The notes beneath the pieces were generated by a model. It worked only from the letters and a program-made list of their open reading frames with translations, did not search any database and had not been told where the DNA came from. A stretch of 64,000 bases of DNA from an uncultured Candidatus Saccharibacteria bacterium (GTDB taxonomy: Bacteria > Patescibacteriota > Minisyncoccia > UBA6257 > WO2-44-18), in contig CAZWVU010000004.1 in the NCBI GenBank assembly GCA_964637575.1, positions 14,788 through 78,787 on the forward strand, given 5' to 3'. The position numbers and the translations under genes were made by a program. Of the stretch, positions 13,657-63,204 are shown in pieces. Numbering within the stretch: position 1 is the first letter of the stretch; every line of letters starts with the position of its first letter.

Positions 13657-13992
13657 ATGGCGAAGATTCAAACCGAGGTGGGCGAGGTGAAGCGTGTATG
13701 CGCGCCGAGCTGCAAGAAGAATCTGAAGCATGAGCCGTGCGCATGCACCGAAAAAACGAAGGTGGTAACCAAGGTGGAGATTTTCGCGGTCTTCGAAGGA
13801 GTGCGGCGGTACCGGGCCTATTTCTCCCCGAATCCCAGAAATCCCGGAAGTCTGCCGAGGATTTCCAACAAGGAGCGCTTCAATGAGCAGGGCCAGCCGG
13901 AGGAAGTGAACGTCCAGATTCCGGACACCATCTACGTGGTCATGGCCCGCCGCGCCCTTGCCATCATCAACAGCGGAGCCCCTCAACTATGA
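13657..13992 (+). CDS. Hypothetical Cys-rich small protein
   Basis: GGAGGAGG RBS before the ATG at 13657. CAPSC...CAC cluster. No known domain. Confidence 0.45.
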   Translation: MAKIQTEVGEVKRVCAPSCKKNLKHEPCACTEKTKVVTKVEIFAVFEGVRRYRAYFSPNPRNPGSLPRISNKERFNEQGQPEEVNVQIPDTIYVVMARRALAIINSGAPQL

Positions 13993-14037
13993 GGGGCTTT
14001 TTCTTTCGCAACGCCCGACGCCGGCGCTCCTTCTCCT

Positions 14038-14074
14038 CGGCAGGACGTCGGGCTACAATCCTGCCTGCGGGAAG
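14038..14074 (+). repeat. Solitary copy of the 37-nt dispersed repeat (variant CGGCAGGACGTCGGGCTACAATCCTGCCTGCGGGAAG) with complementary flanks
   Basis: 35/37 identity to the 6661 unit. Flanks GCCGGCGCTCCTT / AAGGAGTGCCGGC can pair. Confidence 0.8.
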
Positions 14075-14156
14075 GAGTGCCGGCTCATTGAGAGAAAGAG
14101 GTAAGTTTGTGTGGATTAGTTTCAAGCGCAAGTGTGTTAAAATTAGACCATACGTT

Positions 14157-15434
14157 ATGCCGGCTAAAACGGTTAAAAAACCGACGGAAAATAAGGTGGA
14201 AGAAAAGCCCGCGAAGTCAGGCGGCGCTGACGCGGTAAAAGGCGAACTTTCCAAATCACCGAGCGAACTTTCCATCATCAAGCTGGTGGACAGCCTGGTG
14301 CAGGCGGCGTTTCTGGCGCGCTCTTCCGATATCCACATCGATCCCGGCGAAAAACAGATCGCGGTGCGTTTCCGGATCGACGGAGTTCTTCATGATTTTT
14401 ATGTCTTCCCGAAAGAAATTCAGTCCGAGGTAATCAGCCGCATCAAAGTCCTCTCAGGGCTTCGGACCGACGAACACCAGGCGGCCCAGGACGGACGTTT
14501 CCGGCTCACCTTCGACACGGTCAACGTGGATGTCCGCGTCTCCATCGCGCCGACCTACTATGGGGAAAATTGCGTGATGCGTCTGCTTGCCGATCAGGCG
14601 GCGTCATTCACGCTGGAGTCGCTGGGATTTGAAGGCCGCGACCTGGAAGTAGTGAAACGGAATATCAAAAAACCGTACGGCATGATTCTCGCCACCGGCC
14701 CGACCGGCTCCGGCAAGACCACCACGCTCTATACGATTTTGAAAATGCTCAACACGAAAGATGTTTCCATCATCACCATCGAAGATCCGGTGGAATATTC
14801 CATCGACGGACTGGAACAGATCCAGGTGAACTCGCGCACCGGACTGAGCTTCGCGAGCGGGCTCCGCTCCATTCTCCGCCAGGATCCGAACATCGTCATG
14901 GTGGGCGAGATCCGCGACGAGGAGACTGCCGGCATTGCGGTAAACGCGGCGCTGACCGGCCACCTGCTTCTTTCCACGCTTCACACGAACGACGCGGCAA
15001 CCACCCTGCCGCGCCTGCTGGATATGAAAATCGAGCCGTTCCTGATCGCTTCCACCGTTAACGTGGCGGTCGGCCAGCGGCTGGTAAGAAAAATCTGCCC
15101 CGACTGCAAAGTGAAAAAACCGGTCGGCCCGGATGAATTGAAGAGTCTCGCGAGCGTGATTCCCGCCAAAGTGCTGGACGCGGCGAAGACGTTTTACCAT
15201 GGCGAAGGATGCGCCAAATGCGACCACAGCGGCTACAAGGGGCGCATCGGCATCCATGAGGTGATGGAGATCGACGACGAGGTCCGGGTGGCCTTGATGA
15301 AGAGCGCCGACGCGGGAGAAATTAAAAAGATCGCTGTGAAAAACGGCATGACGACCATGGTGGAAGACGGATTCCGCAAAGCGGTGGACGGCGTTACCAC
15401 CATCGAAGAAGTATTGCGCGTCATTCATGAATAA
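14157..15434 (+). CDS. pilB: Type IV pilus assembly ATPase PilB/GspE family (short form)
   Basis: Walker A GPTGSGKTT. Asp box, His box and tetracysteine motif (CPDC...CAKC). ~425 aa. Confidence 0.85.
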   Translation: MPAKTVKKPTENKVEEKPAKSGGADAVKGELSKSPSELSIIKLVDSLVQAAFLARSSDIHIDPGEKQIAVRFRIDGVLHDFYVFPKEIQSEVISRIKVLSGLRTDEHQAAQDGRFRLTFDTVNVDVRVSIAPTYYGENCVMRLLADQAASFTLESLGFEGRDLEVVKRNIKKPYGMILATGPTGSGKTTTLYTILKMLNTKDVSIITIEDPVEYSIDGLEQIQVNSRTGLSFASGLRSILRQDPNIVMVGEIRDEETAGIAVNAALTGHLLLSTLHTNDAATTLPRLLDMKIEPFLIASTVNVAVGQRLVRKICPDCKVKKPVGPDELKSLASVIPAKVLDAAKTFYHGEGCAKCDHSGYKGRIGIHEVMEIDDEVRVALMKSADAGEIKKIAVKNGMTTMVEDGFRKAVDGVTTIEEVLRVIHE

Positions 15435-16506
15435 AACCTCGTTTCTTTCCGGCATCTTCACCCGCGTGCCGATCGAGGATCAGGTGCTTTTGGCGCGCCA
15501 CCTTGCCGTGATGGCGAAGGCCGGGCTGCCGCTCCTGGAAAGCGTGAAGATGATCCAGAAGGAGACGAAGAGCAAGAGTCTGAAAAAAATCCTTGATCAG
15601 GTGGTGGTGGACGTGAGCAACGGCCAGTTTCTTTCCGCGAGCCTGGAAAAGCATAAAAACGTGTTCGGCAATCTTTTCATCAACATTATCCGGGTGGGCG
15701 AGTCGGCGGGCATTCTCGCGGAAAACCTTAATTACCTCGCGGACGAGCTGAAAAAGAAGCGGGAACTGAAGAAAAAAGTGACCGGCGCGCTTATTTATCC
15801 GGCGGTGATTTTTGTGGCCACCTTCGGCATCACCGGATTGCTCACCGTGTTTATCTTCCCGAAAATCCTGCCGATTTTTAAAAGTCTGAACGTCGAATTA
15901 CCGATTACCACGCGGATCCTGATCTGGCTGAGCAACGCGCTCACGAATTACGGCCTGTATCTGATCCTGGGCCTACTGGCATTGCTTCTCGGAATTTATG
16001 GCATCTCGCTGATCCAGAAAGTCCGCTATTTTCTGCACTGGGTATTGCTGAAGCTTCCCATTTTCGGCAACATTTCCCGCAGCGTCAACCTGGCTAATGC
16101 CAGCCGCACGCTCGGCCTCACGCTCAAAAGCGGCGTCCGGGTGGTGGAGGCGGCGACGATCACCGCCGAGTCCCTCACCAACCTTGTCTACCAGCGGGAA
16201 TTACTGAAGGCGGCGGATCTGGTTCAGCGGGGAGAAGCGCTCGGACCGATTCTGGAAAAGCACCCCAAACTTTTTCCCTCGATTGTCACGCAGATGGTCG
16301 CGGTGGGCGAGGCGTCCGGCAATCTAAGCGAAACGCTGCTGTATCTTTCCGACTTCTACGAAGGCGAGGTGAATGAAATTACCAAAAATCTTTCCAACGT
16401 GCTTGAGCCGATTCTGATGGTAACGATGGGCATCGTGGTGGGATTTGTCGCGATTTCCATCATTACGCCGATTTATGAAATCACTTCAAGCATCAGCCCG
16501 CGCTAA
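15427..16506 (+). CDS. pilC: Type IV pilus inner-membrane platform protein PilC/GspF
   Basis: Two GspF repeats. TM segments. Overlaps the pilB stop by 8 nt. Confidence 0.85.
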   Translation: MNKTSFLSGIFTRVPIEDQVLLARHLAVMAKAGLPLLESVKMIQKETKSKSLKKILDQVVVDVSNGQFLSASLEKHKNVFGNLFINIIRVGESAGILAENLNYLADELKKKRELKKKVTGALIYPAVIFVATFGITGLLTVFIFPKILPIFKSLNVELPITTRILIWLSNALTNYGLYLILGLLALLLGIYGISLIQKVRYFLHWVLLKLPIFGNISRSVNLANASRTLGLTLKSGVRVVEAATITAESLTNLVYQRELLKAADLVQRGEALGPILEKHPKLFPSIVTQMVAVGEASGNLSETLLYLSDFYEGEVNEITKNLSNVLEPILMVTMGIVVGFVAISIITPIYEITSSISPR

Positions 16507-16939
16507 GGGGAAGGGCGCGGGGTTCACCCTGCTGGAAACGCTGCTCGTCGTGTCCATTCTGGCGCTGCTGTTCGCGATCGGGTTGCCGGTGGCGTTCAAT
16601 TTCTATCAGGCCTACCAGTTTGATTCGGAATACGAACTCCTTTTTTCCCTACTGGAACAGGCGCGCAATCAGGCGCTGACGAATTATCATGAGGCAAGCC
16701 ACGGTCTTTCCATTAACAGCGTGAACTTCGTGCTGTTTCAGGGTTCCAGTTTCGCCGCGCGCACCGCGGCGCAGGACAAAACCTTTCCCCGCAATTCCGC
16801 CATTACCATCGCCGGCCCCTCGGAAGTGGTCTTCAGCCAGCTGGACGGTACCGTGGCGTCGAGTACGTTTACGGTGAGCAACAGCTACAAAAGCCACGAT
16901 CTTTATTTGAATTCGGAGGGATCGGTGTATTCAAAATAA
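16475..16939 (+). CDS. Prepilin-type (pseudopilin/minor pilin) protein
   Basis: Class III signal KGAGFTLLETLLVVSILAL with Glu at +5. Confidence 0.7.
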   Translation: MKSLQASARAKGKGAGFTLLETLLVVSILALLFAIGLPVAFNFYQAYQFDSEYELLFSLLEQARNQALTNYHEASHGLSINSVNFVLFQGSSFAARTAAQDKTFPRNSAITIAGPSEVVFSQLDGTVASSTFTVSNSYKSHDLYLNSEGSVYSK

Positions 16940-18408
16940 TGAAAATTTTGAATTTAAAATTTACAATTTTAAAAAAAGAAGAAGGGCAGTCGCTTGTTGA
17001 GCTCCTGGTCGCGATCGGCATTTTCAGCATCGCGACGGCCGCCGGCTTCAGTTTATTTTTCGGCGGGCAGATCATCTCCACCGACAGCTCCAATATCAAT
17101 CTGGCCACGGATTACGTCCGGGAGGCGCAGGACGCGCTCCGCGCGATCCGCAACCGCAATTTTACCGAACTGCTCACCGACGGGCCGCACGGCTTTACCT
17201 TCAACGGATCGGAGTGGCTCCTGTCGTCCAGTACCTCTGACACGAAAGATGTGTTTACGCGGCAGGTGAACATCGCCAAGGGGGATTCGGATAACATCAA
17301 GATCGCCACCACCACCGTCACCTGGTCCAGCGCCGATCCCAGCCGGACCGAAAGCCTTACCTTCGTCGAGCAGTTTACCGACTGGGAAACGCCGCTCCAG
17401 AGCAGCTGCAAGTCGCAGGCGCTGACCGGCGACTGGACGAATCCGGTTACGCTTGGTTCGGCGGATATCGGTTCGGGAAATTCCGGGACGGACGTCGTCG
17501 CCAAAGGCAGTTACGCCTACGTGAGCGGTACCGCTTCTTCCGCGAGCAAGCCGGATATTTTTGTGTTTGACGTGAGCGCGCCCGCGGCGCCGGTGCAAAA
17601 GGCTTCACTCAACGTTACCAACGGAGGAATCAACGCGCTTTTCCTGAATGGCAATTACCTCTACGCGGCTTCGCCCGACAACAGCAAGGAATTTCTGGTC
17701 TTTGACGTGACTACCCCGACCAGCATCACTCTCAAGGGTTCGCTGGATTTAACCGGCAACGATGACGCGCTTTCGGTAGTGACGATCGGCACCACTGCGA
17801 TCGTCGGACGGCAAGGAAGTGCCGCCAAACAGATCTCGTTTATTGACGTGAGCGACCCGGCCAATCCGAGCGTGATCAAAGAATTCACCAGTCCCAATGG
17901 CGGCGATATTACCGATCTCGCCTACACGGACAACCGGCTCTACGCGACGAATTATCTTGCCAACGGCACCGCCGACATCCTGACATTCGATATCACCGAT
18001 CCCAGAAACCCCACCTATATCAGCAGTTACGATGTTCCCGCCACGGACAAGCCGCTTTCCGCGTACGTGGAAATCAAAGCGGGCGGCACCAATCTTCTGC
18101 TGGGCGACGGCGACAATGAACTGGTGGCGGTGGGGGCGACAACCACGAGCGGCATGTACGTCCGGAGCCGGGTGAACGTCGGGGGCAAGGTGAATGATAC
18201 CGTCTGCGTGCTGGGCAATCTCGCGTTTCTCGCCACCGATAACCAGAACGCCGAATTTACCGTGGTGAATGTGAATAATCTCAACAGCCTTTCCGTGTAC
18301 TCAACTCTGAATTACCCGAATTTCGCGACCGGAATCGATTTCGACAGCAACAAGGTCTACATGGCGGTGCGAAGCAACGACGCGCTGCGCATTATCACGT
18401 CGCAATAA
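16939..18408 (+). CDS. Large pilin-like protein: prepilin N-terminus fused to LVIVD-repeat beta-propeller (putative pilus tip adhesin)
   Basis: Leader ...EEGQSLVELLVAIGIF with E at +5. Four or more LVIVD-type repeats (IFVFDVSAPAAP, LVFDVTTPTS, ISFIDVSDPANPS, LTFDITDPRNPT). Confidence 0.65.
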   Translation: MKILNLKFTILKKEEGQSLVELLVAIGIFSIATAAGFSLFFGGQIISTDSSNINLATDYVREAQDALRAIRNRNFTELLTDGPHGFTFNGSEWLLSSSTSDTKDVFTRQVNIAKGDSDNIKIATTTVTWSSADPSRTESLTFVEQFTDWETPLQSSCKSQALTGDWTNPVTLGSADIGSGNSGTDVVAKGSYAYVSGTASSASKPDIFVFDVSAPAAPVQKASLNVTNGGINALFLNGNYLYAASPDNSKEFLVFDVTTPTSITLKGSLDLTGNDDALSVVTIGTTAIVGRQGSAAKQISFIDVSDPANPSVIKEFTSPNGGDITDLAYTDNRLYATNYLANGTADILTFDITDPRNPTYISSYDVPATDKPLSAYVEIKAGGTNLLLGDGDNELVAVGATTTSGMYVRSRVNVGGKVNDTVCVLGNLAFLATDNQNAEFTVVNVNNLNSLSVYSTLNYPNFATGIDFDSNKVYMAVRSNDALRIITSQ

Positions 18409-18413
18409 AACTT

Positions 18414-18908
18414 ATGCAGCCAAATTTAAAATTCCGGAACAGGGGGTTCACGCTTATCGAAACGCTTATCTATTCGGCGATCACCACGCTGTTCCTGACC
18501 GCCGCCCTCCTGATGATCTATCAGATGATCAGCAGTCTCCAGCGCGGGAAGAATGAACGGGAACTCGTGGAAAATCAGAAAGTGCTTGAGCAAAAAATTT
18601 ACTGGGCGCTTCAGAGCGTGTCCGCCATCAATTCGCCGGCGGCGAACGCCACTACCACCAGCCTGTCGGTCAACCGATTGAACTACGGCTCGAATCCCAT
18701 CCTGATTGACATGAACGGCGGCGTGGCGCGGATTACGAAAGGAGCGGGAGCGGCCACCCCGGTCACCAATACGTACTCGGATCTCCAGTCCATGACTTTT
18801 CACCAGTACAGCTGGGACGGCCGGCCGGCGATCCGCGTCCAGGCCACACTGGTGAACCACGTCGCGTCCACATCCGTGAGCATCGACACCACCATCATCA
18901 CCAAATGA
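18414..18908 (+). CDS. Prepilin-type minor pilin/pseudopilin
   Basis: RGFTLIETLIYSAITTLFL class III signal. Confidence 0.7.
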   Translation: MQPNLKFRNRGFTLIETLIYSAITTLFLTAALLMIYQMISSLQRGKNERELVENQKVLEQKIYWALQSVSAINSPAANATTTSLSVNRLNYGSNPILIDMNGGVARITKGAGAATPVTNTYSDLQSMTFHQYSWDGRPAIRVQATLVNHVASTSVSIDTTIITK

Positions 18909-19300
18909 CCATTTTAAATTTCCGGGGCGGCTATATCGCCATCACCACTTCCATAATATTATCCATCGTCATTTTGGCGATCGCGGCGGCGCTCGGCAGC
19001 AATCATCTGTTTACCCGGATGAACGTTTCCGATTTTGACGACAAGCAGATGAGCCTGAGTGACGCCCGGTCCTGTCTGGACGAAGCCCGCCTGAAACTTT
19101 CGGATGATTCCAGCTATGCCGGCAATGAAACATTCAGCGTCGGGAGCGACCAGTGCACGATTGTATCCGTCAGCACCTCCGGCTCCAACAAAGTAATTGA
19201 GGCGCAGGCGGCAGTAAGCGGCGCTACCACCGATCTCCAGCTTACGGTGAAGACAGTTGATTTATCCACAGTTTCCTTAGAAGAGCTTCCCAATTTTTGA
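18905..19300 (+). CDS. Putative minor pilin-like protein (no canonical GFxxxE)
   Basis: Hydrophobic N-terminal helix. Located within the pilin gene run. Confidence 0.4.
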   Translation: MTILNFRGGYIAITTSIILSIVILAIAAALGSNHLFTRMNVSDFDDKQMSLSDARSCLDEARLKLSDDSSYAGNETFSVGSDQCTIVSVSTSGSNKVIEAQAAVSGATTDLQLTVKTVDLSTVSLEELPNF

Positions 19301-19349: not shown

Positions 19350-19826
19350 ATGAACAACAACATGAAAAAGAACTCAGGTTTTACCCTCATTGAATTGCTC
19401 GTGGTAATCGGAATTATCGCGATTTTGGCAGGTGTGGTAATCGTAGCGTTGAACCCGGCCCGGCAATTCGCCCAGGCTCGGAACACCCAGCGCTCGGCAA
19501 ACGTGAACGCCATCTTGAACGCAGTCGGTCAGCGTCTGGCTGACAACCGCGGCACATGGCCCGTAGTTGCCGGCGATTGCGCCGCCCTCCCGACCGCGAC
19601 GACGACGATCTCCAGTTCGCAGTACAACATCTACAAGTGCATTGTGCCGAACTACATGAGCAGCCTCCCCGTAGATCCTTCGAACGGTACTCTTACCGAT
19701 GCGACGGATTACGACAGCGGCTATGAGATCGTGAAGGACACGACGACCGGACGGGTTACCGTGAACGCCAAGTACGCGGAAGCCATTGCCGGACTTGCCT
19801 CCACGACGATTTCCGTTTCACGCTAA
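19350..19826 (+). CDS. pilA: Type IV major pilin (copy 1)
   Basis: SGFTLIELLVVIGIIAILAGVV prepilin signal. 158 aa. Confidence 0.85.
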   Translation: MNNNMKKNSGFTLIELLVVIGIIAILAGVVIVALNPARQFAQARNTQRSANVNAILNAVGQRLADNRGTWPVVAGDCAALPTATTTISSSQYNIYKCIVPNYMSSLPVDPSNGTLTDATDYDSGYEIVKDTTTGRVTVNAKYAEAIAGLASTTISVSR

Positions 19827-19832: not shown

Positions 19833-20297
19833 ATGAATAAACAATCAGGTTTTACCCTCATTGAATTGCTCGTGGTAATCGGAATTATCGCGATTTTGGC
19901 AGGTGTGGTAATCGTAGCGTTGAACCCGGCCCGGCAATTCGCCCAGGCTCGGAACACCCAGCGCTCGGCAAACGTGAACGCCATCTTGAACGCAGTCGGT
20001 CAGCGTCTGGCTGACAACCGCGGCACATGGCCCGTAGTTGCCGGCGATTGCGCCGCCCTCCCGACCGCGACGACGACGATCTCCAGTTCGCAGTACAACA
20101 TCTACAAGTGCATTGTGCCGAACTACATGAGCAGCCTCCCCGTAGATCCTTCGAACGGTACTCTTACCGATGCGACGGATTACGACAGCGGCTATGAGAT
20201 CGTGAAGGACACGACGACCGGACGGGTTACCGTGAACGCCAAGTACGCGGAAGCCATTGCCGGACTTGCCTCCACGACGATTTCCGTAAGCAGATAG
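19833..20297 (+). CDS. pilA: Type IV major pilin (copy 2, identical mature protein)
   Basis: ~440 nt identical to copy 1. Differs only in the leader and in synonymous codons of the last 3 residues. Confidence 0.85.
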   Translation: MNKQSGFTLIELLVVIGIIAILAGVVIVALNPARQFAQARNTQRSANVNAILNAVGQRLADNRGTWPVVAGDCAALPTATTTISSSQYNIYKCIVPNYMSSLPVDPSNGTLTDATDYDSGYEIVKDTTTGRVTVNAKYAEAIAGLASTTISVSR

Positions 20298-20310: not shown

Positions 20311-20336
20311 AAAAAACCGCTTAGGCGGTTTTTTGG
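20311..20336. terminator. Bidirectional Rho-independent terminator between pilA2 and the GT2 gene
   Basis: AAAAAACCGC-TTAG-GCGGTTTTTT. Confidence 0.75.
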
Positions 20337-20338: not shown

Positions 20339-21019
20339 TTAGGAGAAAAGTCCGTGCTTCACTATGACCCAGAGCGCCCGGAGGCCGTCAGTCCAGCGGA
20401 TTTTTTTGCCCTCTTCAAACGTGCGCCCATAGTACGAGACGCCGATTTCATAAAACCGCCAGCGTTTTTTACCGAGCTTAATCGTCACTTCCGGTTCGAA
20501 TCCAAAATCTTCTTCAACGAGCCGGACCGACCGGATTGCCTCGCGGCGGAATACTTTATAGCAGGTTTCGATATCGGTAAGGTTGAGGTTGGCAAAAAGA
20601 TTGGTGAGAAAAGTGATGAACCGGTTGGCGAGATAATGGCCGAAGAGCATCACGCGGTGCGGCGAAGACCCGACAAAGCGGGAGCCGTACACCACGTCCG
20701 CCTTTCCTTCCGCGATCGGCTGGATCAGGCGGGGATAATCCGCCGGGTCATATTCCAGATCGGCATCCTGGATAAGGATGATATCGCCGGTCGCCGCGGC
20801 GAGTCCGGTGTGAAGCGCCGCGCCCTTGCCGCGGTTCATTTCGTGACGGAGGACGGTAGCGTTGGGCGCCTGGTAGCCGCGGAGAAACCCGCGCGTGCCG
20901 TCGGTGGAGCAGTCATCCACAATAATAATTTCATCCGGTTTCTGTTCCTGCACTTTTTTCAGGATGAGGGGCAGGGTTTTTTCCTCGTTATAGACGGGAA
21001 TGATTATGGAAAGCTTCAT
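20339..21019 (-). CDS. GT2 glycosyltransferase (polyprenyl-phosphate sugar synthase, DPM1-like)
   Basis: LSIIIPVYNEE, IIIVDDCSTDGT and DADLEYDP (DxD) motifs. Confidence 0.85.
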   Translation of the reverse strand: MKLSIIIPVYNEEKTLPLILKKVQEQKPDEIIIVDDCSTDGTRGFLRGYQAPNATVLRHEMNRGKGAALHTGLAAATGDIILIQDADLEYDPADYPRLIQPIAEGKADVVYGSRFVGSSPHRVMLFGHYLANRFITFLTNLFANLNLTDIETCYKVFRREAIRSVRLVEEDFGFEPEVTIKLGKKRWRFYEIGVSYYGRTFEEGKKIRWTDGLRALWVIVKHGLFS

Positions 21020-21140
21020 CCCGCACATAACAAAGAGTGCGTTTCACGCAATCTTTGCATAAGATCATGCCGCGACTTTTCCTTGGGTTGATTTTGCATA
21101 AATGATTATAAGGTTAATTGCTCTTTGTTATGTGTGGGAT
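21018..21140. repeat. Imperfect 20-bp inverted repeat pair (ATCCCGCACATAACAAAGAG at 21018-21037 and CTCTTTGTTATGTGTGGGAT at 21121-21140) with an 83-bp non-coding spacer
   Basis: 19/20 reverse complement. Shares the core ATCCCRCACATAAC with the GIY-YIG-flanking repeat at 4228/4505. Confidence 0.85.
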
Positions 21141-21143
21141 TCA

Positions 21144-22703
21144 TTACAGTATTTTGTATACCACCGTGTCCGGATTTTCAAACACGTTCCGGAAGGCCGG
21201 CGCGGTGGAAAGGTATTTGTTGAGCGAAGGATTCCGTGATTTTTCCAGCACGATATAAGAAGCATGGAAGTCATTTTTGAGCGCCTGATAGGTGCTTTCC
21301 ACCTGGCCGGCGGTGCAGCGCACTTCGGCGCAGGTGTAGCCGGTAGCCGCGTCTATCGAGTAGAAATGGGTCTTCCAATACAGCTGGGGATTGAAGTCAT
21401 ATTCAAAGATCGGATCCATGCCGTTGATGTAGTAGTTGTTCGGATCCCAGAAAAACAGTTCGCCAAACCGGTCCCAGTGGATGTTGAAAACGATTTCGCC
21501 GGGTTTCGTGTGCTGGCCAAGCCATTCGCCGGCTGGCTGCATCAGGAGGGGATGGAAGGCGTTGGTAACATAGGTATCAAAACGGTAGATATTCTTGAAC
21601 GGCGCGATAATCAGGGCGATTATGGCGGCGAGGACCGCCAGCGTGTGGGAAGCCGAGCGGCTGTTTTTTTGCTGATAGAAAAGAGTGGCCAGCAGCGCGA
21701 TAAAGATACTACCGAATCCGACGAAGAGTTCGTTGGAACGCCGGGCGATTCCGAAGGTCATCGCCGCGAAGATCAGGGTAAGGAGTCCGCTGCTCCAGAC
21801 GGCAACCCGGATTTCCGGGCGCAATTCCCTGAACCTTCTGCTTTTAATCAAAAACAAGAGAAACCCGGCGGCCAGTATCAGAAGGATGGTAATAGGAATA
21901 AGCTGATCGACGAAATTTTCCCAGACAAAAGGCGTCAATTCCCTGCCGAAACGGAGTGGCAGCATCTGTTGTTTCACCGACATCAGCTTTACCACCTGAA
22001 TGACCGCAAGTTTCAGCGTGCCGACGGGGTTGGGACGGGCGAGCCAGCCGGCCAGTACGCCTGTGCCGGCCGCGAGCAGCGACCGCCAGCCGGCGCCGCG
22101 CCGCGAAAGAACATGAAAGAGCGCCACGGCCAACGCCACAATCCCCGCGACCCAGATAAGCGAAATATGAATCCAGGCGAAGACCGCTGAAATCGCCGCG
22201 ATTGGCCAGAGTCCGCGGAGTGAGACGGGATTTTCCACCAGGAAAGAAAAGAGCAGCAGGGTAAGTCCGAGCGACAGGGGATGCGGACGGAGCATGGCCA
22301 GCCGGTACATCAGATCGGCGGTGATGACGGCGAAGATCATTGTCCAGAACAGCGGCCAGCGGACGCGGAGGCGCTTGAATGCCCAGAAGGCGAGAAGGAG
22401 CGAGGCGATCGTCACGGCAAAGGTGCCCCAGTAGATCCCGTATATCAGAAGATGGAACAGCGTGAAGGGGATCAGGAGGATATGGAATCCATACCAGATA
22501 TCGGAAGCATAGGTTTTGATTGAAGAATCCTGCGTCCAGGGAAAGGCAGTCTGGAACGGGCCGTTGACGCGGTATTCCCAGGCGTGCCGAATATGGTAAA
22601 ACCCGTCCGTGTCGGCGATATTCGGGAAGAGCTGGGTATGAAGCAGCAGCGCGAACAGGGTGATGACGGCAAAGGCGGCGAGCCATTCATACTTTTTAAA
22701 CAT
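21144..22703 (-). CDS. Polytopic membrane protein, putative GT-C-fold glycosyltransferase (paralog A)
   Basis: 519 aa with >10 TM segments. Conserved blocks DGFYHIRHA, FPWTQ, DIWYGFHILLIPFT and C-terminal YYINGMDPIFEY, all shared with 23177..24727. Confidence 0.55.
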   Translation of the reverse strand: MFKKYEWLAAFAVITLFALLLHTQLFPNIADTDGFYHIRHAWEYRVNGPFQTAFPWTQDSSIKTYASDIWYGFHILLIPFTLFHLLIYGIYWGTFAVTIASLLLAFWAFKRLRVRWPLFWTMIFAVITADLMYRLAMLRPHPLSLGLTLLLFSFLVENPVSLRGLWPIAAISAVFAWIHISLIWVAGIVALAVALFHVLSRRGAGWRSLLAAGTGVLAGWLARPNPVGTLKLAVIQVVKLMSVKQQMLPLRFGRELTPFVWENFVDQLIPITILLILAAGFLLFLIKSRRFRELRPEIRVAVWSSGLLTLIFAAMTFGIARRSNELFVGFGSIFIALLATLFYQQKNSRSASHTLAVLAAIIALIIAPFKNIYRFDTYVTNAFHPLLMQPAGEWLGQHTKPGEIVFNIHWDRFGELFFWDPNNYYINGMDPIFEYDFNPQLYWKTHFYSIDAATGYTCAEVRCTAGQVESTYQALKNDFHASYIVLEKSRNPSLNKYLSTAPAFRNVFENPDTVVYKIL

Positions 22704-22753
22704 TTATTGATTGTAGCAAATAAAATTCCCCGACGTATATCGGGGAATTCCGG

Positions 22754-23128
22754 TCAGACTTTCGCGGCGAGATGGAACTCCACCTTGAAGGGTCCGGGAG
22801 TCTGGCGCTCTTCTTCGTAGGCGGGCAGTTCCAGCGCTTTGCCGAAGTTTTCGTACTGCACGAAGATGACGCTGCACTCTTTCTTTCCGCTGACGGCGTA
22901 CACGCGCACGGATTCGATGAGGCCGCGGGCCTGTTCCGCCCAGATGCCGAGCGCCATAGCCTGCATCGCTCCCACGGAGGCAGCCAGGATTGCCGTTCTC
23001 CAGTCGCCGAAAGCTTCCTGCTCGATCAGCTCGAGCTCCTGAAAAATCGCCGCCATTTCCCGGGAAGCCGCTTCCGCCGAAACGTCCACGGTTTTGCCAT
23101 TTTCCTTCCGCTTCACTACGCACCTCAC
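22754..23128 (-). CDS. Hypothetical soluble protein between the two membrane paralogs
   Basis: 124-aa ORF co-directional with its neighbours. Competing ORFs overlap in this GC-rich region. Confidence 0.3.
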   Translation of the reverse strand: MRCVVKRKENGKTVDVSAEAASREMAAIFQELELIEQEAFGDWRTAILAASVGAMQAMALGIWAEQARGLIESVRVYAVSGKKECSVIFVQYENFGKALELPAYEEERQTPGPFKVEFHLAAKV

Positions 23129-23176
23129 TCAAATTTCTACCATCAAATTACTAAAAAAATGGCAAAAAGTCAAATT

Positions 23177-24727
23177 TTATTTTACTCGGTACACAAGTTC
23201 ATTTTCAGTGGCGAACACTTTTTCAAAATGCGGATCGGCGGCGAGATTCGCGGCAAAACCGGCATTGCGGTCCAGCTCCACCATCACGTATTTCGCGCGA
23301 AAGTCGCCGGCGATGGCTTCATACAGCGATTTCCCGTCTTGGGGCGTACAGGGGAGCGCCGGGCAGGTGTACGGCTTGCCGCCGACGGCAAGGAAAAAAT
23401 TCTCAAAATAAAGTTTCGGATTGTAGGCGTATTCAAAGATCGGATCAGCGCCGTTGATGTAATAATCGCGATCATTCCAGAAGAAGAGCATCGGGAAGGA
23501 ATCCCAGGAAGTGTGAAATACAGTATCGCCGGGGCGGGAATGATCCTTCAGCCACAATGAAGCAGTTCTCAACTGGTCAGCGCCGCCCGCCGGCTCGGCG
23601 GCGTAGGTGGTATAGAGATAGGAATGCCAGGTCAGCATCACCAACAAAAGGCAGCCGAACACCAGCGACACCGCCGGTTTTTTAGAATGGTGCCACCATG
23701 AAAAAAGCGACGCGGCGAGTATCACCGCGAAAAGGGCGAAAAAATCGGTGGCGCGGCGGCCGAGCGTGAAGCCGAGCGCCAGAAAGACAATCGACAGGCA
23801 GGAGGCAGACCAGACAAGACGTTTCATTTCGGAAGGAGCGGCGGAGAATTTTTTGGATTTGAGCGCGAATGCCAGAATCCCGATGGCGATCAGCCAAACG
23901 GCAAGGATGGGAATGAGTTGGGTGAGGATGACGGTGCCGTTCAGCGGCCGGAGTTCGTCGCCGGAAAGAAGCGGGACGCCAGCCCGCTTCGCGGCGATCA
24001 GCTCAAAGAGCTGAATCCACAGGATCTTCGCGGCGCCGAACGGGTTGGGGCGGGAGAGCCAGCCAAGCAGCGTGCCCGCGATCACGGACGCCGGCATCTG
24101 CCAGAAATGTTTTTTCTCCACCCGCGCAGTAACGATTGCGACCACTGCGGTAACGAGCGGGGCAATCCAAAAAAAAGCGAGGTGCAGAAAAGGGATCGCG
24201 AACGCGAGCGCCGCAAGCAGGAGCCAGGATTTTTTAGTGGCCGGCTTGGCCTGAACGGAGCCGAATGGCCTGATAAGGAAAGAAAAAATCAGGGCGAGAA
24301 ACGCGATGGTCAGTGTGTTCGGCCGGAGCTGGTTCAACCGGAAGAGCAGATTCGGCGTGGCGAAATAAAAAAGAAGCGTCCAGAAAAACGGCCAGCGGAT
24401 TTCGTGGCGTTTCAGGACGAAATAAAATCCGAGCAGGGCCAGTGCCGCGAAGAGTGTCGCCGCCATTTTTACGCCAAGCGTGAGATCGGAAAAGACCGTG
24501 AAAGGGATCAGCAAAAGATGAAAGCCGTACCAGATATCGGCCTGATATGTCTTCCAGACGGAGAATTGCGTCCATGGGAAATCGGTACGGAATATCCCGT
24601 TCTGCGCGTAAACTGCCGCGTGCGTGATGTGATAAAACTGGTCCGGTTCAATCAATTGTCCCGGACCGAACACAAACACCGCGGCAAGCGCCAGGAAAAG
24701 TAAAAACACCGGCAGCCAGAATTTCAT
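23177..24727 (-). CDS. Polytopic membrane protein, putative GT-C-fold glycosyltransferase (paralog B)
   Basis: 516 aa. DQFYHITHA, FPWTQ, DIWYGFHLLLIPFT, YYINGADPIFEY. Confidence 0.55.
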   Translation of the reverse strand: MKFWLPVFLLFLALAAVFVFGPGQLIEPDQFYHITHAAVYAQNGIFRTDFPWTQFSVWKTYQADIWYGFHLLLIPFTVFSDLTLGVKMAATLFAALALLGFYFVLKRHEIRWPFFWTLLFYFATPNLLFRLNQLRPNTLTIAFLALIFSFLIRPFGSVQAKPATKKSWLLLAALAFAIPFLHLAFFWIAPLVTAVVAIVTARVEKKHFWQMPASVIAGTLLGWLSRPNPFGAAKILWIQLFELIAAKRAGVPLLSGDELRPLNGTVILTQLIPILAVWLIAIGILAFALKSKKFSAAPSEMKRLVWSASCLSIVFLALGFTLGRRATDFFALFAVILAASLFSWWHHSKKPAVSLVFGCLLLVMLTWHSYLYTTYAAEPAGGADQLRTASLWLKDHSRPGDTVFHTSWDSFPMLFFWNDRDYYINGADPIFEYAYNPKLYFENFFLAVGGKPYTCPALPCTPQDGKSLYEAIAGDFRAKYVMVELDRNAGFAANLAADPHFEKVFATENELVYRVK

Positions 24728-24819: not shown

Positions 24820-25566
24820 ATGAACACAAATATGAAAAATCTTCTCATGGCGTTCGCGTTTAGCGTGGCGGTAACGGCGGTAGTCGCAGTCGGTTTGCCG
24901 GTGGCATTTGCCGAGGCGGACTCGGCGACGAGCACGCCGGCAACCCATCAGCTGGCGCAGATGTCGGTGAATGTCGAACGGAACGGTAATATAAAACTGG
25001 TCGGACAATTGACCGCCGTCAGCGGCACTAATCTTACGGTGCAGAGCTGGGGAGGCGCCTGGGCGGTGGATGCTTCGGCCGCGAAGATCGTCCGCCGGTT
25101 TAACGGCGAATCCAATTTTGCCGAGTATCAGGTCGGTGACACGGTGACGGTCTGGGGTGACGCTTCCGCGAGCGGCCTTACCGTCAAGGCGAAGATGGTC
25201 AAGGATGAATCCATCCAGAAGCGGGGCGCTGACTTCATCGGAGTTATTTCCGGAGTCAATGCATCCAGCACGACCAGCTTCACGCTGACTGTGAAGAACC
25301 GCGGCGCGCTGGCGATTACGGTGAATGCGGATACCAAAATCACCATCAACGGCCAGTCCGCGTCTTCTACTGCGGGTTTGACGAACGGCATGTACGCGAG
25401 CGTTACCGGAGTTTGGGATACCACCAACTCCACGGTCATCGCGGCCACGGTGAACGCCAGGACCGCGGCGAGCGTGCTTGATGACGCGAATCCGAGCTTC
25501 CTGCAAAAGATATTCCGCTTCTTCGGAGGCAGGGGCAAGGGAGAAGGCAAGGGAAATCAGGAATAG
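24820..25566 (+). CDS. Secreted repeat protein (DUF5666-like beta repeats)
   Basis: Signal peptide MKNLLMAFAFSVAVTAVVAVGLPVAFA. Repeated VGDTVTVWGD / TVKNRGALAITVNADTKITING segments. Confidence 0.55.
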   Translation: MNTNMKNLLMAFAFSVAVTAVVAVGLPVAFAEADSATSTPATHQLAQMSVNVERNGNIKLVGQLTAVSGTNLTVQSWGGAWAVDASAAKIVRRFNGESNFAEYQVGDTVTVWGDASASGLTVKAKMVKDESIQKRGADFIGVISGVNASSTTSFTLTVKNRGALAITVNADTKITINGQSASSTAGLTNGMYASVTGVWDTTNSTVIAATVNARTAASVLDDANPSFLQKIFRFFGGRGKGEGKGNQE

Positions 25567-25634
25567 TTCACGCAAAACATCCGCTTCGGCGGATGTTTTT
25601 GGTTTCTTTGGTTTCGCGAACTCCTCCTTCTCCT

Positions 25635-25671
25635 CGCCAGGACGTCGGGCTACAATCCTGTCTGCGGGAAG
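25635..25671 (+). repeat. Solitary exact copy of the 37-nt dispersed repeat with 13-bp complementary flanks
   Basis: Identical to the 6661 unit. Flanks CGAACTCCTCCTT / AAGGAGGAGTTCG are perfect reverse complements. Preceded by a terminator hairpin at ~25571-25603. Confidence 0.85.
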
Positions 25672-25753
25672 GAGGAGTTCGCTGCCGTCTCGCAGAATGG
25701 TTTTTCAAGGGAAATCATGCTAAATTAGGAATAGTTTTTTTAGGAAAAAACGT

Positions 25754-26113
25754 ATGGACAAGCAGGGCTTGCCGGCGAATGTGAACCCGTTTTGTGTCGT
25801 GGATGATCACTGCCTGTGCGACGGCTTGCATGCGTATCACTGGCCCGGATACTTCGCTGAAATTCCGCGGTCAGAACCGAACCGCAATCCGTGTGGTGTT
25901 ACCGCGCGTGCGGATGTGCAGATGCCGGCGCTTTCCCAGCAGGAGGCGGAGGCATTTGTGCGCGACGTGCATGACCACGATTGTCTGAGTCGCGTATTTG
26001 CCGTAAAGGAAGAATGGAAGCACCTTATCCCCGCTGATTTGAGGAAATCCGTGCTGGTGGCAAAGACTACCGAAGGCCACTGCCTTTCCGACGCAACGTA
26101 TTATCTGGAATAA
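25754..26113 (+). CDS. Hypothetical Cys/His-rich protein
   Basis: 119-aa ORF. No recognised domain. Confidence 0.35.
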   Translation: MDKQGLPANVNPFCVVDDHCLCDGLHAYHWPGYFAEIPRSEPNRNPCGVTARADVQMPALSQQEAEAFVRDVHDHDCLSRVFAVKEEWKHLIPADLRKSVLVAKTTEGHCLSDATYYLE

Positions 26114-26267
26114 TCCCCGCGCCCTCTCTAGGGCGCTTTTTCCTTCCGCGCTGCTCAAATTACCTAAGGCGTACTGGTAATACTTATAAAAACGGTCTTC
26201 CTACGCCAAACATCGCGGATTTTCTTCTTTTAAAAATAACTGCGAAGTCTTCCGTTCTTCTCTGTAG

Positions 26268-26432
26268 CCAGCCGGAATATTTTCGAGGGAATATCTCGGA
26301 GCCGATTCGGCTGGCCTGGCGCATGGTTGCGCCAGGGCCAAGGGTGCCTTGCGAATCGGCGAGAGCTAAGTGGTGCCGTTGCGCCGCCGGAGCGCAACGG
26401 ACACCCGGTTCCCGAGAAGATGTTCCGGCTGG
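26268..26432 (-). ncRNA. Copy 4 (minus strand) of the GGGAACCGGGUGUCC structured element, with an expanded second hairpin
   Basis: Reverse complement reads GGGAACCGGGTGTCCGTTGCGCTCCGGCGGCGCAACGGCACCAC...GCCGATTCG[insert]CGAATCGGCTCCGAG. Closing stem TTCCCGAGAAGATGTTCCGGCTGG / CCAGCCGGAATATTTTCGAGGGAA. Confidence 0.55.
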
Positions 26433-26500
26433 TTGAGGTGGCAGGAGAAGAATGGAAGACAAGCCCACCTTGTAAGAAATATGCTATTATATCGTCGTAT

Positions 26501-27031
26501 ATGAGGGACTTGGAAAAAGAATTTTTAAAATCCTATGACCAGTACGCCGACCCGATCTTCCGCCACTGCTACTTCCGGGTTTTTAACCGTGAACGGGCGA
26601 AGGACCTGATGCAGGAAACGTTCATGAAAACCTGGGAATACATGCAGAAAGGAGAGGTAAAAAATGTCCGGGCGTTTCTCTACCGGGTGGCGAATAACCT
26701 CATCATCGACAATTCCCGCCGTAAGCAGGAGCAGTCGCTCGACCGGCTGCAGGAGGAAGGATTCGATCCGGGACAAGACACGAGAGACAGGCTGACCAAT
26801 TTTCTGGAAGGAGGCGAGGTGATCAAAGTTCTCAATAAACTGAATCCGAAATACCGGGAAGTGATCCAGCTGCGGTATATCGACGATCTCTCGCCGAAAG
26901 AAATCGCGGAGACGATCGGGGAGACCGAGAACAACGTTTCCGTGCGACTTCATCGCGGTATCAAGGAGCTCCGGGATATCCTGGAGTATGCGGAAAATCC
27001 GCTTCGGGAGCGCAATCAAAAACATGGATAA
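26501..27031 (+). CDS. ECF-type RNA polymerase sigma factor (sigma-70 family regions 2 and 4)
   Basis: Region 2 YRVANNLIIDNSRRK. Region 4 LNPKYREVIQLRYIDDLSPKEIAETIGETENNVSVRLHRG. Confidence 0.8.
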   Translation: MRDLEKEFLKSYDQYADPIFRHCYFRVFNRERAKDLMQETFMKTWEYMQKGEVKNVRAFLYRVANNLIIDNSRRKQEQSLDRLQEEGFDPGQDTRDRLTNFLEGGEVIKVLNKLNPKYREVIQLRYIDDLSPKEIAETIGETENNVSVRLHRGIKELRDILEYAENPLRERNQKHG

Positions 27032-28049
27032 TCTTATCAAAAATTTAATCAAACGGGCGAAAGGAATTTCGTTGAACGGTGTTGAGAGGGCGGAAATCCG
27101 CCATCGTCTTTCTGCGTTCGCGCGCGGGCATGAGGCCCTGGGCGCCGCATCCCGGACTCCGTGGCTGATCCGCATACTGAAGCCGGCGCTGGCCGGAGTG
27201 ATTCTTGCCGGCCTGGCGGGCGGCGGAGTTTCCTTTGCGGCTGAAAATTCTTTGCCGGGCGATCCGCTCTATCCTGTGAAGATCAATGTTATCGAACCAG
27301 TACAGGGATGGTTCGCCGTTTCTTCTGAAGCCAGAGCCGATTGGGAGGCGAAGCTGGCGGAACGGCGGCTGGAAGAAGCCGAGAAGCTCGCGGCCGAGAA
27401 CCGCCTGGACGATGAGAAGCGCGCCGAAGCCGAGTCGGAGTTCCAGAAACACGCGGAAAAAGCCAAAGAGCATATCGCCGCGCTGGAAGCCGGCGCCGAT
27501 CTCAATGCTGCCTCCAATATCAGCTCGCGCATCGAGGCGTCGTTCAAGGCGCACGGAAAAATTTTGCAGAAACTGATGCGCGGCGGGGAAGTCGGCGCCA
27601 AAGCTGACGCAGAGGCGGACATTGCTTCCACCACCCGGGCGGCGATAGAAGCGAGAATTTCCGCCGAGGAAGGTCCGGACGAGCAGTCGGCCGCCGAAGG
27701 GAAGGAGGGAGCGGCGCAGAGCAAGATCCAGGAAGTGCAGCAGTTCCTGTCCGGACTGGACGCGAGTACGACCGCGCAGGCGAACGCGCGTCTGACCGAG
27801 GCGGATACCGTATTCGCGCAGGGACAGGCGGAGCTTTCGGCCGGGCATTCTGGCGCGGCCTTCGTGCTCTTCCAGCAGGCGATGCGGATCGCCCAGGAAG
27901 CGAAATTACTGATCGAAGCGCATAAAAATTTTGAGATTGAATTGAAGCTCAACGGCAATTTCCATCTCAAAGGCGACCATGAAGATCAGCGCGCATCCGA
28001 AGGGGAGGGCAGTGCCAAAACCGAGGCGGAACTTGACTTGAATTTGTAG
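27025..28049 (+). CDS. Putative anti-sigma factor with DUF5667 domain and coiled-coil C-terminus
   Basis: Overlaps the sigma gene stop. Single TM. PGDPLYPVK motif. Long Ala/Glu-rich helical region. Confidence 0.55.
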
Positions 28050-29460: not shown

Positions 29461-30171
29461 TTATTTGGTAAACGGTTTGTCGAACGCGAGCACCCAGATG
29501 AAATTCATGACGTACCGGGAAATAGTCCGGACATAGCCGTGTTTGCGGAAACGGCGGGAAGAGGAATAGACCAGAAGTCCGGGAGCAAAGATTACTTTGC
29601 CGATTTTCCGGAGCTGTTTGCCGATCTTCACGTCATCGCCGAAAAATTTGTAACTCACGTCCAGACCGCCGATTTTTTCCAGCGCTTCGCGCCGAGCCGC
29701 CACATTTCCGCCGAAGACGACGCTGCCGATGCGGAGAATGTAGTGCACCAGAAAATAGGCCGGATAGGCATATACAAGGAAGCCGTAAAACGTGATGAAT
29801 TTTCCCAGCCCGTGCTGGTCGTGATAGGCATACGGGCCGCTGACCCCGACCACGCCGGGTTTGGAAAGATGGCGGATGGCGGTCTCGCTCCAGTCGGCGG
29901 CGAGCCAGTTATCGGCGTCAATAAAGGCGATGATGTCTCCCGTGGCGATTTTCCGTCCCGCTTCACGGGCAATATTGGTGCCCGGCGTCGTTTCTACGAT
30001 CACTTTTGTCTTCGGATAAGCAGCGGCGATTTCCCGTGTCCGGTCGGAGCTGCCGTTGTCGGCAATAATAATCTCTTTGACCAGTTCCGCTGGTTGTTTT
30101 AGGATATATTCTATTGTCCGACCGATGCCTTCTTCCTCATTGCGGGCCGGGATGACAAACGAAATCTGCAT
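29461..30171 (-). CDS. GT2 glycosyltransferase
   Basis: ISFVIPARNEE, IIIADNGSSDRT, IAFIDADN. Confidence 0.85.
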   Translation of the reverse strand: MQISFVIPARNEEEGIGRTIEYILKQPAELVKEIIIADNGSSDRTREIAAAYPKTKVIVETTPGTNIAREAGRKIATGDIIAFIDADNWLAADWSETAIRHLSKPGVVGVSGPYAYHDQHGLGKFITFYGFLVYAYPAYFLVHYILRIGSVVFGGNVAARREALEKIGGLDVSYKFFGDDVKIGKQLRKIGKVIFAPGLLVYSSSRRFRKHGYVRTISRYVMNFIWVLAFDKPFTK

Positions 30172-30498
30172 ATGAATTCTTTACTTGTAAAATCTGTGTT
30201 TGCGGCAAGCGCGGCGATCCTGATCCTTGCTTCTGTATTATTCTACCTGCAACTTGCGCCAATCCGCAACGTGATTGTGGTGGGTTTTGACGGTTTCCGC
30301 GACCTGAATATACTCGGCACGAGTGCCGATATTTCCGCGATTCTGGTGTCCGGAGGGCTGCTTCTTCTGATGAACATGGGTTTGGCGGCCGTCTGGGCTC
30401 CGCGGGAACGGTTTTATGCGGCGGTACTGCCGTTTGTCTCGCTTTTTATCTCGATATTGATTTTAATTTCGGTCGGTGTTACGATTGCTAGCAATTAG
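30172..30498 (+). CDS. Hypothetical small membrane protein
   Basis: 108-aa ORF with three hydrophobic segments. Divergent from the GT2 gene. Confidence 0.4.
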   Translation: MNSLLVKSVFAASAAILILASVLFYLQLAPIRNVIVVGFDGFRDLNILGTSADISAILVSGGLLLLMNMGLAAVWAPRERFYAAVLPFVSLFISILILISVGVTIASN

Positions 30499-61898: not shown

Positions 61899-61912
61899 TC
61901 GATTTGACCGAC

Positions 61913-63058: not shown

Positions 63059-63204
63059 TCACCACTTTTTCTTACTACACAGCGTAATTGATGTAGTAAA
63101 AGTATTCCAAACCACAAAGTCATTATGACAAAATATGCCATCTTTGACAACGAAAATCTGAAGCGGTAAAATACAAATAAGTAATTTTATCGGGTACGAC
63201 TTTT

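Follow-up and report, generated by a model that had tools for sequence, protein, structure and literature searches.

Several bacterial glycosylation systems combine a glycosyltransferase of family GT2 with a membrane glycosyltransferase of the GT-C fold. In the Pgf system (PgfS with PgfM1 and PgfM2) and in the GtrB/PgtC2 system, a GT2 enzyme and one GT-C enzyme, or two in the case of Pgf, glycosylate Ser/Thr-rich, extracytoplasmic parts of surface proteins (bioRxiv 10.1101/2024.05.05.592596; PMC5856776). Three-component systems likewise consist of a polyprenyl-phosphate-sugar synthase and a GT-C enzyme that acts outside the membrane (PMC11127046; PMC5836110). Pilins are also among the substrates of GT-C enzymes: TfpW glycosylates the group IV pilins found in Pseudomonas aeruginosa by attaching alpha-1,5-linked D-arabinofuranose oligomers (bioRxiv 10.1101/2020.04.19.049825). 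Type IV pili (T4P) are the best-conserved surface machines of the Candidate Phyla Radiation (CPR), or Patescibacteria, where they have been linked to attachment to hosts, motility and the uptake of DNA; a study of the Saccharibacteria pilus predicts O-glycosylation of pilins and calls glycosylation in these organisms unexplored (PMC11623550). Here we describe a GT2 gene and two paralogous genes for GT-C-fold membrane proteins, referred to as paralogs A and B, which lie beside a T4P operon in an uncultured Candidatus Saccharibacteria bacterium (assembly GCA_964637575.1, contig CAZWVU010000004.1, positions 14,788 to 78,787). This whole stretch of 64,000 nucleotides is called the window, and coordinates refer to it unless a different locus is named.

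We read this cluster as a candidate module for polyprenyl-phosphate-sugar-dependent glycosylation outside the cytoplasm. The enzymology, that is, GT-C transferases using a lipid-monophosphate sugar donor, is in our judgement very probably of this kind and, if so, analogy with known enzymes makes a protein the more probable type of acceptor. The full statement, in which Ser or Thr residues of the neighbouring pilins receive the sugar, is offered tentatively, with somewhat less than an even chance of being correct in all its parts. The new element is the GT-C family itself, whereas the gene logic of a lipid-sugar synthase together with a GT-C enzyme is already known.

The gene cluster and its GT-C family

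The cluster is encoded on the minus strand. Paralog B (23177..24727, 516 residues) is followed by a small open reading frame (ORF; 22754..23128, 124 residues, or 120 as called on other contigs), paralog A (21144..22703, 519 residues) and GT2 (20339..21028, 229 residues), whose probable true start is M4, giving the 226 residues that are called on other contigs. The two paralogs share 36% identity across about 499 residues (E 9e-108), far beyond chance. Paralog B has all 28 invariant residues of the family, and in a rough neighbour-joining (NJ) tree its clade differs from that of the A-type genes. An earlier note on this DNA had described two large paralogous membrane proteins with more than 10 transmembrane (TM) segments, a small ORF between them, a DPM1-like GT2 gene downstream and pilins nearby, and this description holds. 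The blocks that it listed as shared (D(G/Q)FYHI.HA, FPWTQ, DIWYGFH.LLIPFT and FW(D/N)..(N/D)YYING.DPIFEY) all occur in both A and B, 11 TM helices are present in the structural model, 'DPM1-like' is a fair label for the GT2 enzyme in view of its nearest solved relatives, and pilin genes, including two tandem major pilins, are directly adjacent on the opposite strand.

The small ORF has no Pfam or NCBIfam match and no clear TM bundle. It is also called as a gene on other contigs, but it is missing from most syntenic loci, and its sole detected homologue (locus L008, 27.7% identity, E 2e-13) likewise lies upstream of an A-type gene. Since it is present in just one other genome, it was rejected as a core component and is regarded as lineage-specific.

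An AlphaFold2 model of paralog A, built on an alignment of 82 family members, reached a predicted local distance difference test (pLDDT) score of 95.9 and a predicted TM-score (pTM) of 0.94, with 11 TM helices preceding an alpha/beta domain (about residues 381-519). When this model was compared with the Protein Data Bank (PDB) using Foldseek, only GT-C enzymes matched confidently, the top 16 all at probability 1.00. The TM-score normalised to the query (TMq) was 0.53-0.66 for STT3, DPY19, PglB, ALG9 and ArnT. Yeast and human STT3 matched with E values of 2e-8 to 1e-7 and TMq of 0.61-0.62, the top full-length match being 7oci_F (E 2.3e-8, TMq 0.61), and the highest TM-score of all belonged to DPY19 (7zli/7zlg, TMq up to 0.66). 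Further GT-C matches were PglB (6gxc), ALG9, ArnT and AftA, then Pmt4, EmbA and AftB, of which Pmt4 was a weaker one (E 2.2e-3, TMq 0.43). Transporters, by comparison, reached at most probability 0.21 and TM-score 0.17, and a transporter identity was rejected on this structural ranking. On the strength of the model, A and B are assigned to the GT-C-fold superfamily. The earlier note had made this assignment from the sequence and had named HHpred or Foldseek as the check; the outcome agrees with it, with GT-C structures matching and no confident transporter match.

Sequence searches connect the paralogs to no catalogued family. Neither A nor B matches a Pfam model at E<=1 or an NCBIfam model, and phmmer searches of both against the PDB gave nothing beyond chance, a match of B to a Thermus competence pilin at E 0.01 being treated as such. 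The family profile found no sequence match in the PDB by hmmsearch, and three matches of a profile of the C-terminal domain (E 0.34-1.7) were also treated as chance. A Pfam scan of all 82 members at the same threshold returned only TM-segment noise (DUF6404 in 10, EpsG in 5, best 1.8e-6). The Pfam profiles of PMT and PMT_2 (GT39), MIR domains, YfhO and STT3 matched neither A, nor B, nor any of the 82 members, and an STT3 sequence match was likewise absent from the PDB search. By profile, the paralogs constitute a previously uncatalogued GT-C family that is none of YfhO, PMT, STT3 or ArnT, which bears out the view of the earlier note that an uncharacterised GT-C-like family is encoded here. In the literature searched we found no description of a CPR oligosaccharyltransferase (OST) or of this GT-C family.

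Among 1.84 billion cluster representatives (50% identity), the family profile recovered 3,103 sequences with E<=1e-3, of which 1,198 had E<=1e-30. Those with names are nearly all 'hypothetical protein' entries from metagenome-assembled genomes (MAGs) of Patescibacteria or Parcubacteria type, and the family appears largely confined to Patescibacteria. It is multi-copy within these small genomes: three members stand in tandem on one contig (L070, 5682-10744), and in several genomes members occur at two or three loci apart from each other (e.g. L016 and L041 of JACOXP010000005.1). A second member is found just upstream of the A-type gene in L003, L011, L013, L014, L016, L017 and L023. Because these upstream copies and paralog B fall in different clades of the rough NJ tree, the slot of the second GT-C gene appears to be filled by different paralog lineages.

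Putative donor synthase, candidate active site and likeness to oligosaccharyltransferases

The GT2 enzyme (PF00535, E 5.6e-40) is closest to the polyprenyl-phosphate sugar synthases. Its best NCBIfam matches are AglJ, PpgS, ArnC, PgfS and a dolichyl-phosphate (Dol-P)-hexose transferase, all of them below the equivalog cut-offs: AglJ, the best, scores 110 bits against a cut-off of 325, and PpgS and PgfS match with E values of 3e-19 and 1.7e-17. The best PDB sequence matches are the Dol-P-mannose (Dol-P-Man) synthase of Pyrococcus (DPMS, 5mlz, 1.8e-15), ArnC and GtrB. A scan for window ORFs with at least two TM-like segments revealed no TM anchor or tail in GT2. Each of the 15 non-redundant orthologous loci has a GT2 gene beside its A-type gene, and among distant family members GT2 is the commonest neighbour (7/97), followed by the GT-C families PMT_2 (6) and PMT (4). 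Moreover, two proteins are fusions of an N-terminal GT2 with a C-terminal family member (P0078, L006 3711-6020, and P0257). They are 24% identical and yet collinear, and the fusion is either ancient or arose more than once; in both, the GT2 part is N-terminal and on the cytoplasmic side, which is where the topology demands it. A functional link between GT2 and the GT-C family is well supported by these gene arrangements, and the proposal of the earlier note that a lipid-linked sugar synthase is tied to the GT-C proteins has gained strength from the conserved adjacency and the fusions. The window also holds a second small GT2 gene (29461-30171, minus strand, 236 residues, PF00535 1.1e-28), which is only distantly related to the first (39.6% identity over 91 residues) and is adjoined by a 108-residue ORF with three TM-like segments (30172-30498, plus strand) and no family match.

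In the 82-member alignment, 77 positions are at least 90% conserved, nearly all of them in predicted external loops or in the C-terminal domain; they include FPWTQ, DIWYGFH, R134/R139, H179, RPNP, E255, R321/R322 and the C-terminal motifs. The blocks quoted in the earlier note are invariant or nearly invariant columns of this alignment. The first extracytoplasmic loop of A carries the motif D31-T-D33-G-F-Y-H-I-R-H-A (22581..22613), in which D33, Y36, H37 and H40 are invariant and D31 is 98% conserved. D31 and D33 are located 6-8 residues after TM1, the position of the catalytic acid in GT-C enzymes, and in the model they are candidates for this role. A long external loop before TM8 contains G253-R-E255-L (21936..21947), with E255 conserved at 99% and aligned with E319 of the PglB TIXE motif. 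The pair R321-R322 at the outer end of TM9/TM10 (21738..21743), of which R322 is invariant, aligns beside PglB R375 and is a candidate phosphate ligand. Finally, the C-terminal domain begins with H-W410-D411-R-F413 (21465..21479) in a strand-WD-helix-strand arrangement. W410 and F413 are invariant, D411 is 93% conserved and the position before the Trp is mostly His, but also Arg, Asn or Gln; this xWDxF motif may be a degenerate counterpart of the WWDYG motif of STT3, PglB and AglB, a weak correspondence at the level of sequence. Since no position between residues 80 and 254 holds a conserved Asp or Glu, the family has no counterpart of the second acidic motif of PglB (D154/D156), which binds metal and pyrophosphate. 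Its absence would fit a donor in which a monosaccharide is linked through a monophosphate.

The active site is predicted to face outward. TM1 spans residues 6-25 and is preceded by Lys and Arg, which places the N terminus inside, the short loops assigned to the cytoplasm are rich in Lys and Arg, and the C-terminal domain contains a Cys pair (C458/C463) that is 98% conserved. These features, together with the analogy of fold, are the reasons for placing the conserved loops outside. The DxFYH block, for which the earlier note had named an extracytoplasmic position as the critical point, accordingly follows TM1 directly and is predicted to lie on the outer side. A DsbB-family protein is encoded elsewhere in the window (54455-54973, plus strand); it fits extracytoplasmic disulfides in pilins and in the GT-C C-terminal domain.

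The likeness to OSTs of the STT3/PglB/AglB lineage was followed with profiles. A PglB profile was built from 12 sequences, the query being checked against 3RCE, and its depth was limited because the homologue search returned only close Campylobacter relatives. With hhalign, residues 254-411 of the family profile aligned on PglB 318-465 with a probability of 12-15% (P 0.0017-0.0025) and a score of 36.1; as controls, the reversed PglB profile scored 15.0, and 20 block-shuffled profiles scored 14.8-26.5. In this weak alignment E255 is collinear with E319, A-R-R (320-322) with A-L-R375, and IVFNIHWD with YVVAWWD. Single sequences aligned with PglB or yeast STT3 were too weak to use (probability 0.2-2.5%). 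The isolated C-terminal domain was modelled with a pLDDT of 89.1, and in Foldseek AglB-S2 (3vu0) and STT3 chains were its top seven matches (probability 0.63-0.92, TMq 0.49-0.56), with E values of just 0.04-0.18; ArnT came next. The earlier note had stated that the conserved blocks show no obvious match to ArnT, PMT or OST motifs. As to OSTs this has to be modified, given the faint match to their landmarks. These lines, with STT3 as the top full-length match, are weak but concordant in pointing to the STT3/PglB/AglB branch. Against membership stand the missing STT3 profile match, the 11 helices in place of 13, the lack of a second acidic motif and the ambiguous register of the first-loop motif; we therefore describe an unclassified GT-C family with OST-like architecture and do not place it in GT66. 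In the model, its architecture is closest to that of STT3, PglB and AglB, minus the second acidic motif.

Some further similarities were noticed in the first loops. By eye, DxDSFYHIR resembles the STT3 sequence ExDPWFNYR, and no claim is made on the register. Low-confidence greedy hhalign runs pair FPWTQYS in residues 54-74 of A (about 22482-22544, minus strand) with DPWFNYR of STT3, and ADIWYGFH with the invariant RDMIAGFH of PglB; either pairing may be fortuitous or may reflect a real correspondence between the first loops. A bolder scenario would make the A-type enzyme a Patescibacteria-specific offshoot of the OST lineage, one that lost the pyrophosphate/metal motif, takes a polyprenyl-monophosphate monosaccharide from its partner, and in some cases fused, GT2 and uses a retained peptide-binding WD motif in O-glycosylating (S/T)-x-(S/T) sites within the conserved Ser/Thr patch of type IV pilins. 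We regard this as a speculation that is unlikely to hold in full. If true, it would describe a dedicated pilin glycosylation system of ultra-small episymbionts and an evolutionary bridge from OSTs to enzymes of the PMT/DPY19 type.

The type IV pilus neighbourhood and the choice of acceptor

A complete T4P operon on the plus strand converges on GT2. Its upstream part (13989..19300) encodes, by Pfam, the PilB ATPase, the PilC platform protein, minor pilins, a 489-residue LVIVD/beta-propeller pilin and a 131-residue ORF. Two tandem major pilin genes with the N_methyl motif follow (19350-19826 and 19833-20297; 158 and 154 residues). Their products are 98.7% identical over 154 residues and differ mainly in the N-terminal leader, which marks a recent duplication next to the genes for glycosylation. 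In the alignment of syntenic major pilins, a conserved Ser/Thr patch, ALPTATTTISSS (A-L-P-T-A-T-T-T-I-S-S), lies between two Cys, and the C terminus is conserved as (S/T)ISV(S/T)R. The 24 nucleotides between the converging pilin and GT2 stop codons form a hairpin (20311..20334, aaaaaaccgc-ttag-gcggtttttt), read directly from the sequence and left unlisted by a scan for consensus terminators, which looks like a bidirectional intrinsic terminator. Because of this terminator-like hairpin, the pilus genes and the GT2 side are taken to be two separate transcription units.

This arrangement recurs. In 13 of the 15 loci of the A clade, which come from different MAG species, the pair of A-type GT-C and GT2 genes converges on the T4P major pilin gene. 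The shared order is second GT-C (where present), A-type GT-C and GT2, and on the opposite strand the major pilin, with the remaining T4P genes behind it as far as PilC and PilB. The L023 locus has its pilus operon on the other side of the pair, still adjacent, and T4P genes lie within 10 kb of members of other family clades in L047, L049, L067 and L068. By analogy with known pilin modification, type IV pilins are a plausible acceptor and the leading specific candidate. On the other flank, a secreted DUF5666 protein with Ser/Thr-rich stretches is encoded directly upstream of paralog B and divergently from it, in a plus-strand cluster (24820-28049) that continues with an ECF-type (extracytoplasmic function) sigma factor (26327-27031) and a DUF5667 protein (26988-28049). 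The closest relatives, L007 and L008, likewise have DUF5666 beside the cluster.

The proposed mechanism would run as follows. The GT2 enzyme, soluble or peripheral, would load one sugar unit from a nucleotide sugar onto polyprenyl phosphate at the cytoplasmic face, a step that we infer because its closest relatives are polyprenyl-phosphate sugar synthases. The lipid-linked sugar would be flipped outward by a protein encoded outside this window. Both GT-C paralogs, whose fold is seen in the model, would then transfer the sugar to an acceptor beyond the membrane, using active sites formed by the His-rich first external loop with D31/D33, the E255 loop, R134, R139, R223, R321/R322 and the C-terminal domain. 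Ser and Thr residues of the neighbouring type IV pilins are the favoured acceptors, in an O-glycosylation, and the two paralogs would serve different sites, linkages or acceptors. A protein acceptor is favoured because the nearest structures (STT3, DPY19 and PglB) and the retained WD motif belong to GT-C enzymes that bind peptides.

Several observations weigh against pilin glycosylation as set out here. The pilus and glycosylation genes are convergent with a terminator-like hairpin between them, and so are not co-transcribed. The T4P linkage could be inherited synteny, as it comes from one clade in which PilB is 65-83% identical, and outside this clade about 5 of some 55 loci are linked to T4P genes, barely above a rough chance estimate of 2-6%. 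Paralog B groups in the rough NJ tree with members that adjoin GT2 but are not T4P-linked, and the presence of several paralogs per genome also suits the assembly of polysaccharide or lipoglycan. No flippase of GtrA, SMR or MATE type was found in the operon or the 64-kb window, whose small multi-TM ORFs are holin-like, DoxX-like, DsbB or without assignment. The likeness to OST landmarks is weak, both in hhalign (12-15%) and in Foldseek of the C-terminal domain (E 0.04-0.2), and the register of the first-loop motif relative to STT3 and PglB could not be fixed.

The same enzymology could instead serve an envelope glycan or lipid, such as a wall or teichoic-like polymer, a lipoglycan or a peptidoglycan-linked polysaccharide, with the pilus neighbourhood incidental, in parallel with Gtr-type modification of O-antigen, CsbB/YfhO glycosylation of lipoteichoic acid and the assembly of mycobacterial arabinan and mannan. 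We consider this possible but rather doubtful. Several paralogs per genome in tandem arrays of up to three (L070) recall the GT-C sets that build polymers, most members outside the A clade lack nearby T4P genes and have GT2 and other GT-C families as their commonest neighbours, the confident structural matches also include ArnT, ALG9 and AftA, which act on lipids or glycans, and the separate transcription of GT-C and pilin genes agrees as well. However, the best structural matches of both the full-length protein and the C-terminal domain are peptide-binding GT-C enzymes, and the invariant W410 and 93% conserved D411 stand where OSTs bind the acceptor peptide, as far as the weak hhalign alignment goes. 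The cluster moreover contains no carbohydrate-binding module and no genes for polymer synthesis or export, and the adjacency to the major pilin has outlived the rearrangement in L023. A general O-glycosylation of Ser/Thr in many exported proteins, in the manner of Pgf or GtrB/PgtC2, with pilins as one class of substrate or not among them, seems unlikely to us. It draws on the Pgf architecture of one GT2 and two GT-C enzymes (bioRxiv 10.1101/2024.05.05.592596), on the PgfS match of GT2 below its cut-off, on the Ser/Thr-rich DUF5666 protein kept beside the cluster in the closest relatives, and on the wide distribution and variable contexts of the family. The GT-C proteins here, however, are not of the YfhO family, to judge from Pfam, and the most consistent neighbour in the A clade is the major pilin gene rather than a gene for another Ser/Thr-rich protein.

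A divergent bacterial OST of the STT3/PglB/AglB lineage would transfer a lipid-linked oligosaccharide (LLO) en bloc to Asn or another residue, and GT2 would add the first sugar in the manner of haloarchaeal AglJ. STT3 as the top full-length match, AglB and STT3 as the top matches of the isolated domain, AglJ as the best NCBIfam match of GT2, and the collinearity of E255, R321/R322 and WD with PglB E319, R375 and WWD above shuffled controls all point in this direction. Yet the STT3 Pfam model matches none of the 82 members, the model of A has 11 TM helices and OSTs have 13, and there is nothing to correspond to D154-x-D156. The cluster holds a single GT2 gene, no further genes for glycan assembly and no flippase, and no conserved N-X-S/T sequon is found among 16 aligned syntenic major pilins. 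On this balance a true OST is quite improbable. Least credible of all, to the point of being nearly dismissed, is a polytopic transporter, polymerase or scaffold with nothing but a helical bundle in common with GT-C enzymes. It would explain why no characterised enzyme is matched at sequence level, but sixteen GT-C structures match at probability 1.00 where transporters remain at or below 0.21 with TM-scores of at most 0.17, conservation is concentrated in external loops and not in a transmembrane pore, and the adjacency to and fusion with GT2 indicate a shared sugar pathway. Pilin O-glycosylation by a lipid-monophosphate-dependent GT-C pair is retained as the tentative working proposal.

Its value is that of a concrete and testable candidate, in which a GT-C fold and possible catalytic residues are combined with a putative synthase for the donor and a patch of potential acceptor sites. 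Should the proposal be confirmed, the result would be a new GT-C family, likely also a new family in the carbohydrate-active enzymes database (CAZy), a documented case of protein glycosylation in organisms with minimal genomes and insight into how donors and acceptors of OST-like enzymes have diversified. An envelope glycan as the acceptor would still mean that enzymes building the poorly known surface of CPR cells had been identified.

Two further regions of the window, away from the cluster, deserve mention. A tRNA-His gene (59062-59135) is followed by a large serine recombinase of 559 residues (59124-60803, minus strand), GC content falls from about 0.54 to 0.40-0.43 over 60-64 kb, and there is a weak DUF5666-like match at 62651-62830; judging from gene content and composition, the region 59062-64000 probably represents an integrated mobile element or the remnant of a prophage. 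Between dnaK (37791-39668) and dnaJ (40599-41684), a protein of 308 residues with about eight TM-like segments and no Pfam match is encoded at 39668-40594 (plus strand).

Relation to known glycosylation systems

The three-component systems with which the locus was compared are GtrB/GtrA/Gtr*, CsbB/GtcA/YfhO, ORF15/14/12 of C. youngae (founding GT136) and mycobacterial PpgS/Rv3779. Of their synthases, PpgS is represented in NCBIfam by a polyprenyl-phospho-N-acetylgalactosaminyl synthase profile of 226 positions, about the size of GT2 here. In contrast to these systems, which employ a dedicated flippase, none was found in the cluster or the window, and their acceptors are glycans or lipids, not proteins. 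GtrB carries C-terminal TM helices, whereas GT2 lacks them.

With STT3, PglB and AglB the paralogs have in common the GT-C fold and acidic residues directly after TM1, and their predicted extracytoplasmic alpha/beta domain at the C terminus has a weak resemblance to that of AglB and STT3. They differ in the WWDYG motif, where the first Trp is replaced by His, Arg, Asn or Gln and the Tyr-Gly is not conserved, and in their partner or fusion, which is a polyprenyl-phosphate sugar synthase of monosaccharide type and not a multi-enzyme LLO pathway. The tryptophan C-mannosyltransferase DPY19 is a protein-modifying GT-C enzyme with a monophosphate donor, seen in the 7zli complex with Dol25-P-Man, and thus offers a precedent for the type of donor proposed here. 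It is, however, eukaryotic and modifies Trp, and no sequence similarity to the paralogs was detected.

The gene for TfpW belongs to the pilin cluster and has the same orientation as pilA. Compared by description, it resembles the present system in that a GT-C gene is linked to the major pilin gene, here in the window and in 13/15 orthologous loci, but in our case GT-C and pilin genes run towards each other and end separately. As for a D-arabinofuranose pathway, no DprE-like or phosphoribosyl pyrophosphate (PRPP)-transferase genes were seen among the window ORFs scanned. Streptococcal Pgf differs in that its GT-C enzymes, like PgtC2, are annotated with a YfhO domain, while A and B match no Pfam model; the cluster described here is without an epimerase, and its candidate acceptor patch lies in a structured pilin, not in a disordered tail. 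Pgf and GtrB/PgtC2 are nevertheless closer parallels than the three-component systems, and the composition of Pgf, with a GT-A/GT2 lipid-sugar synthase and two GT-C enzymes, is that of the present cluster.

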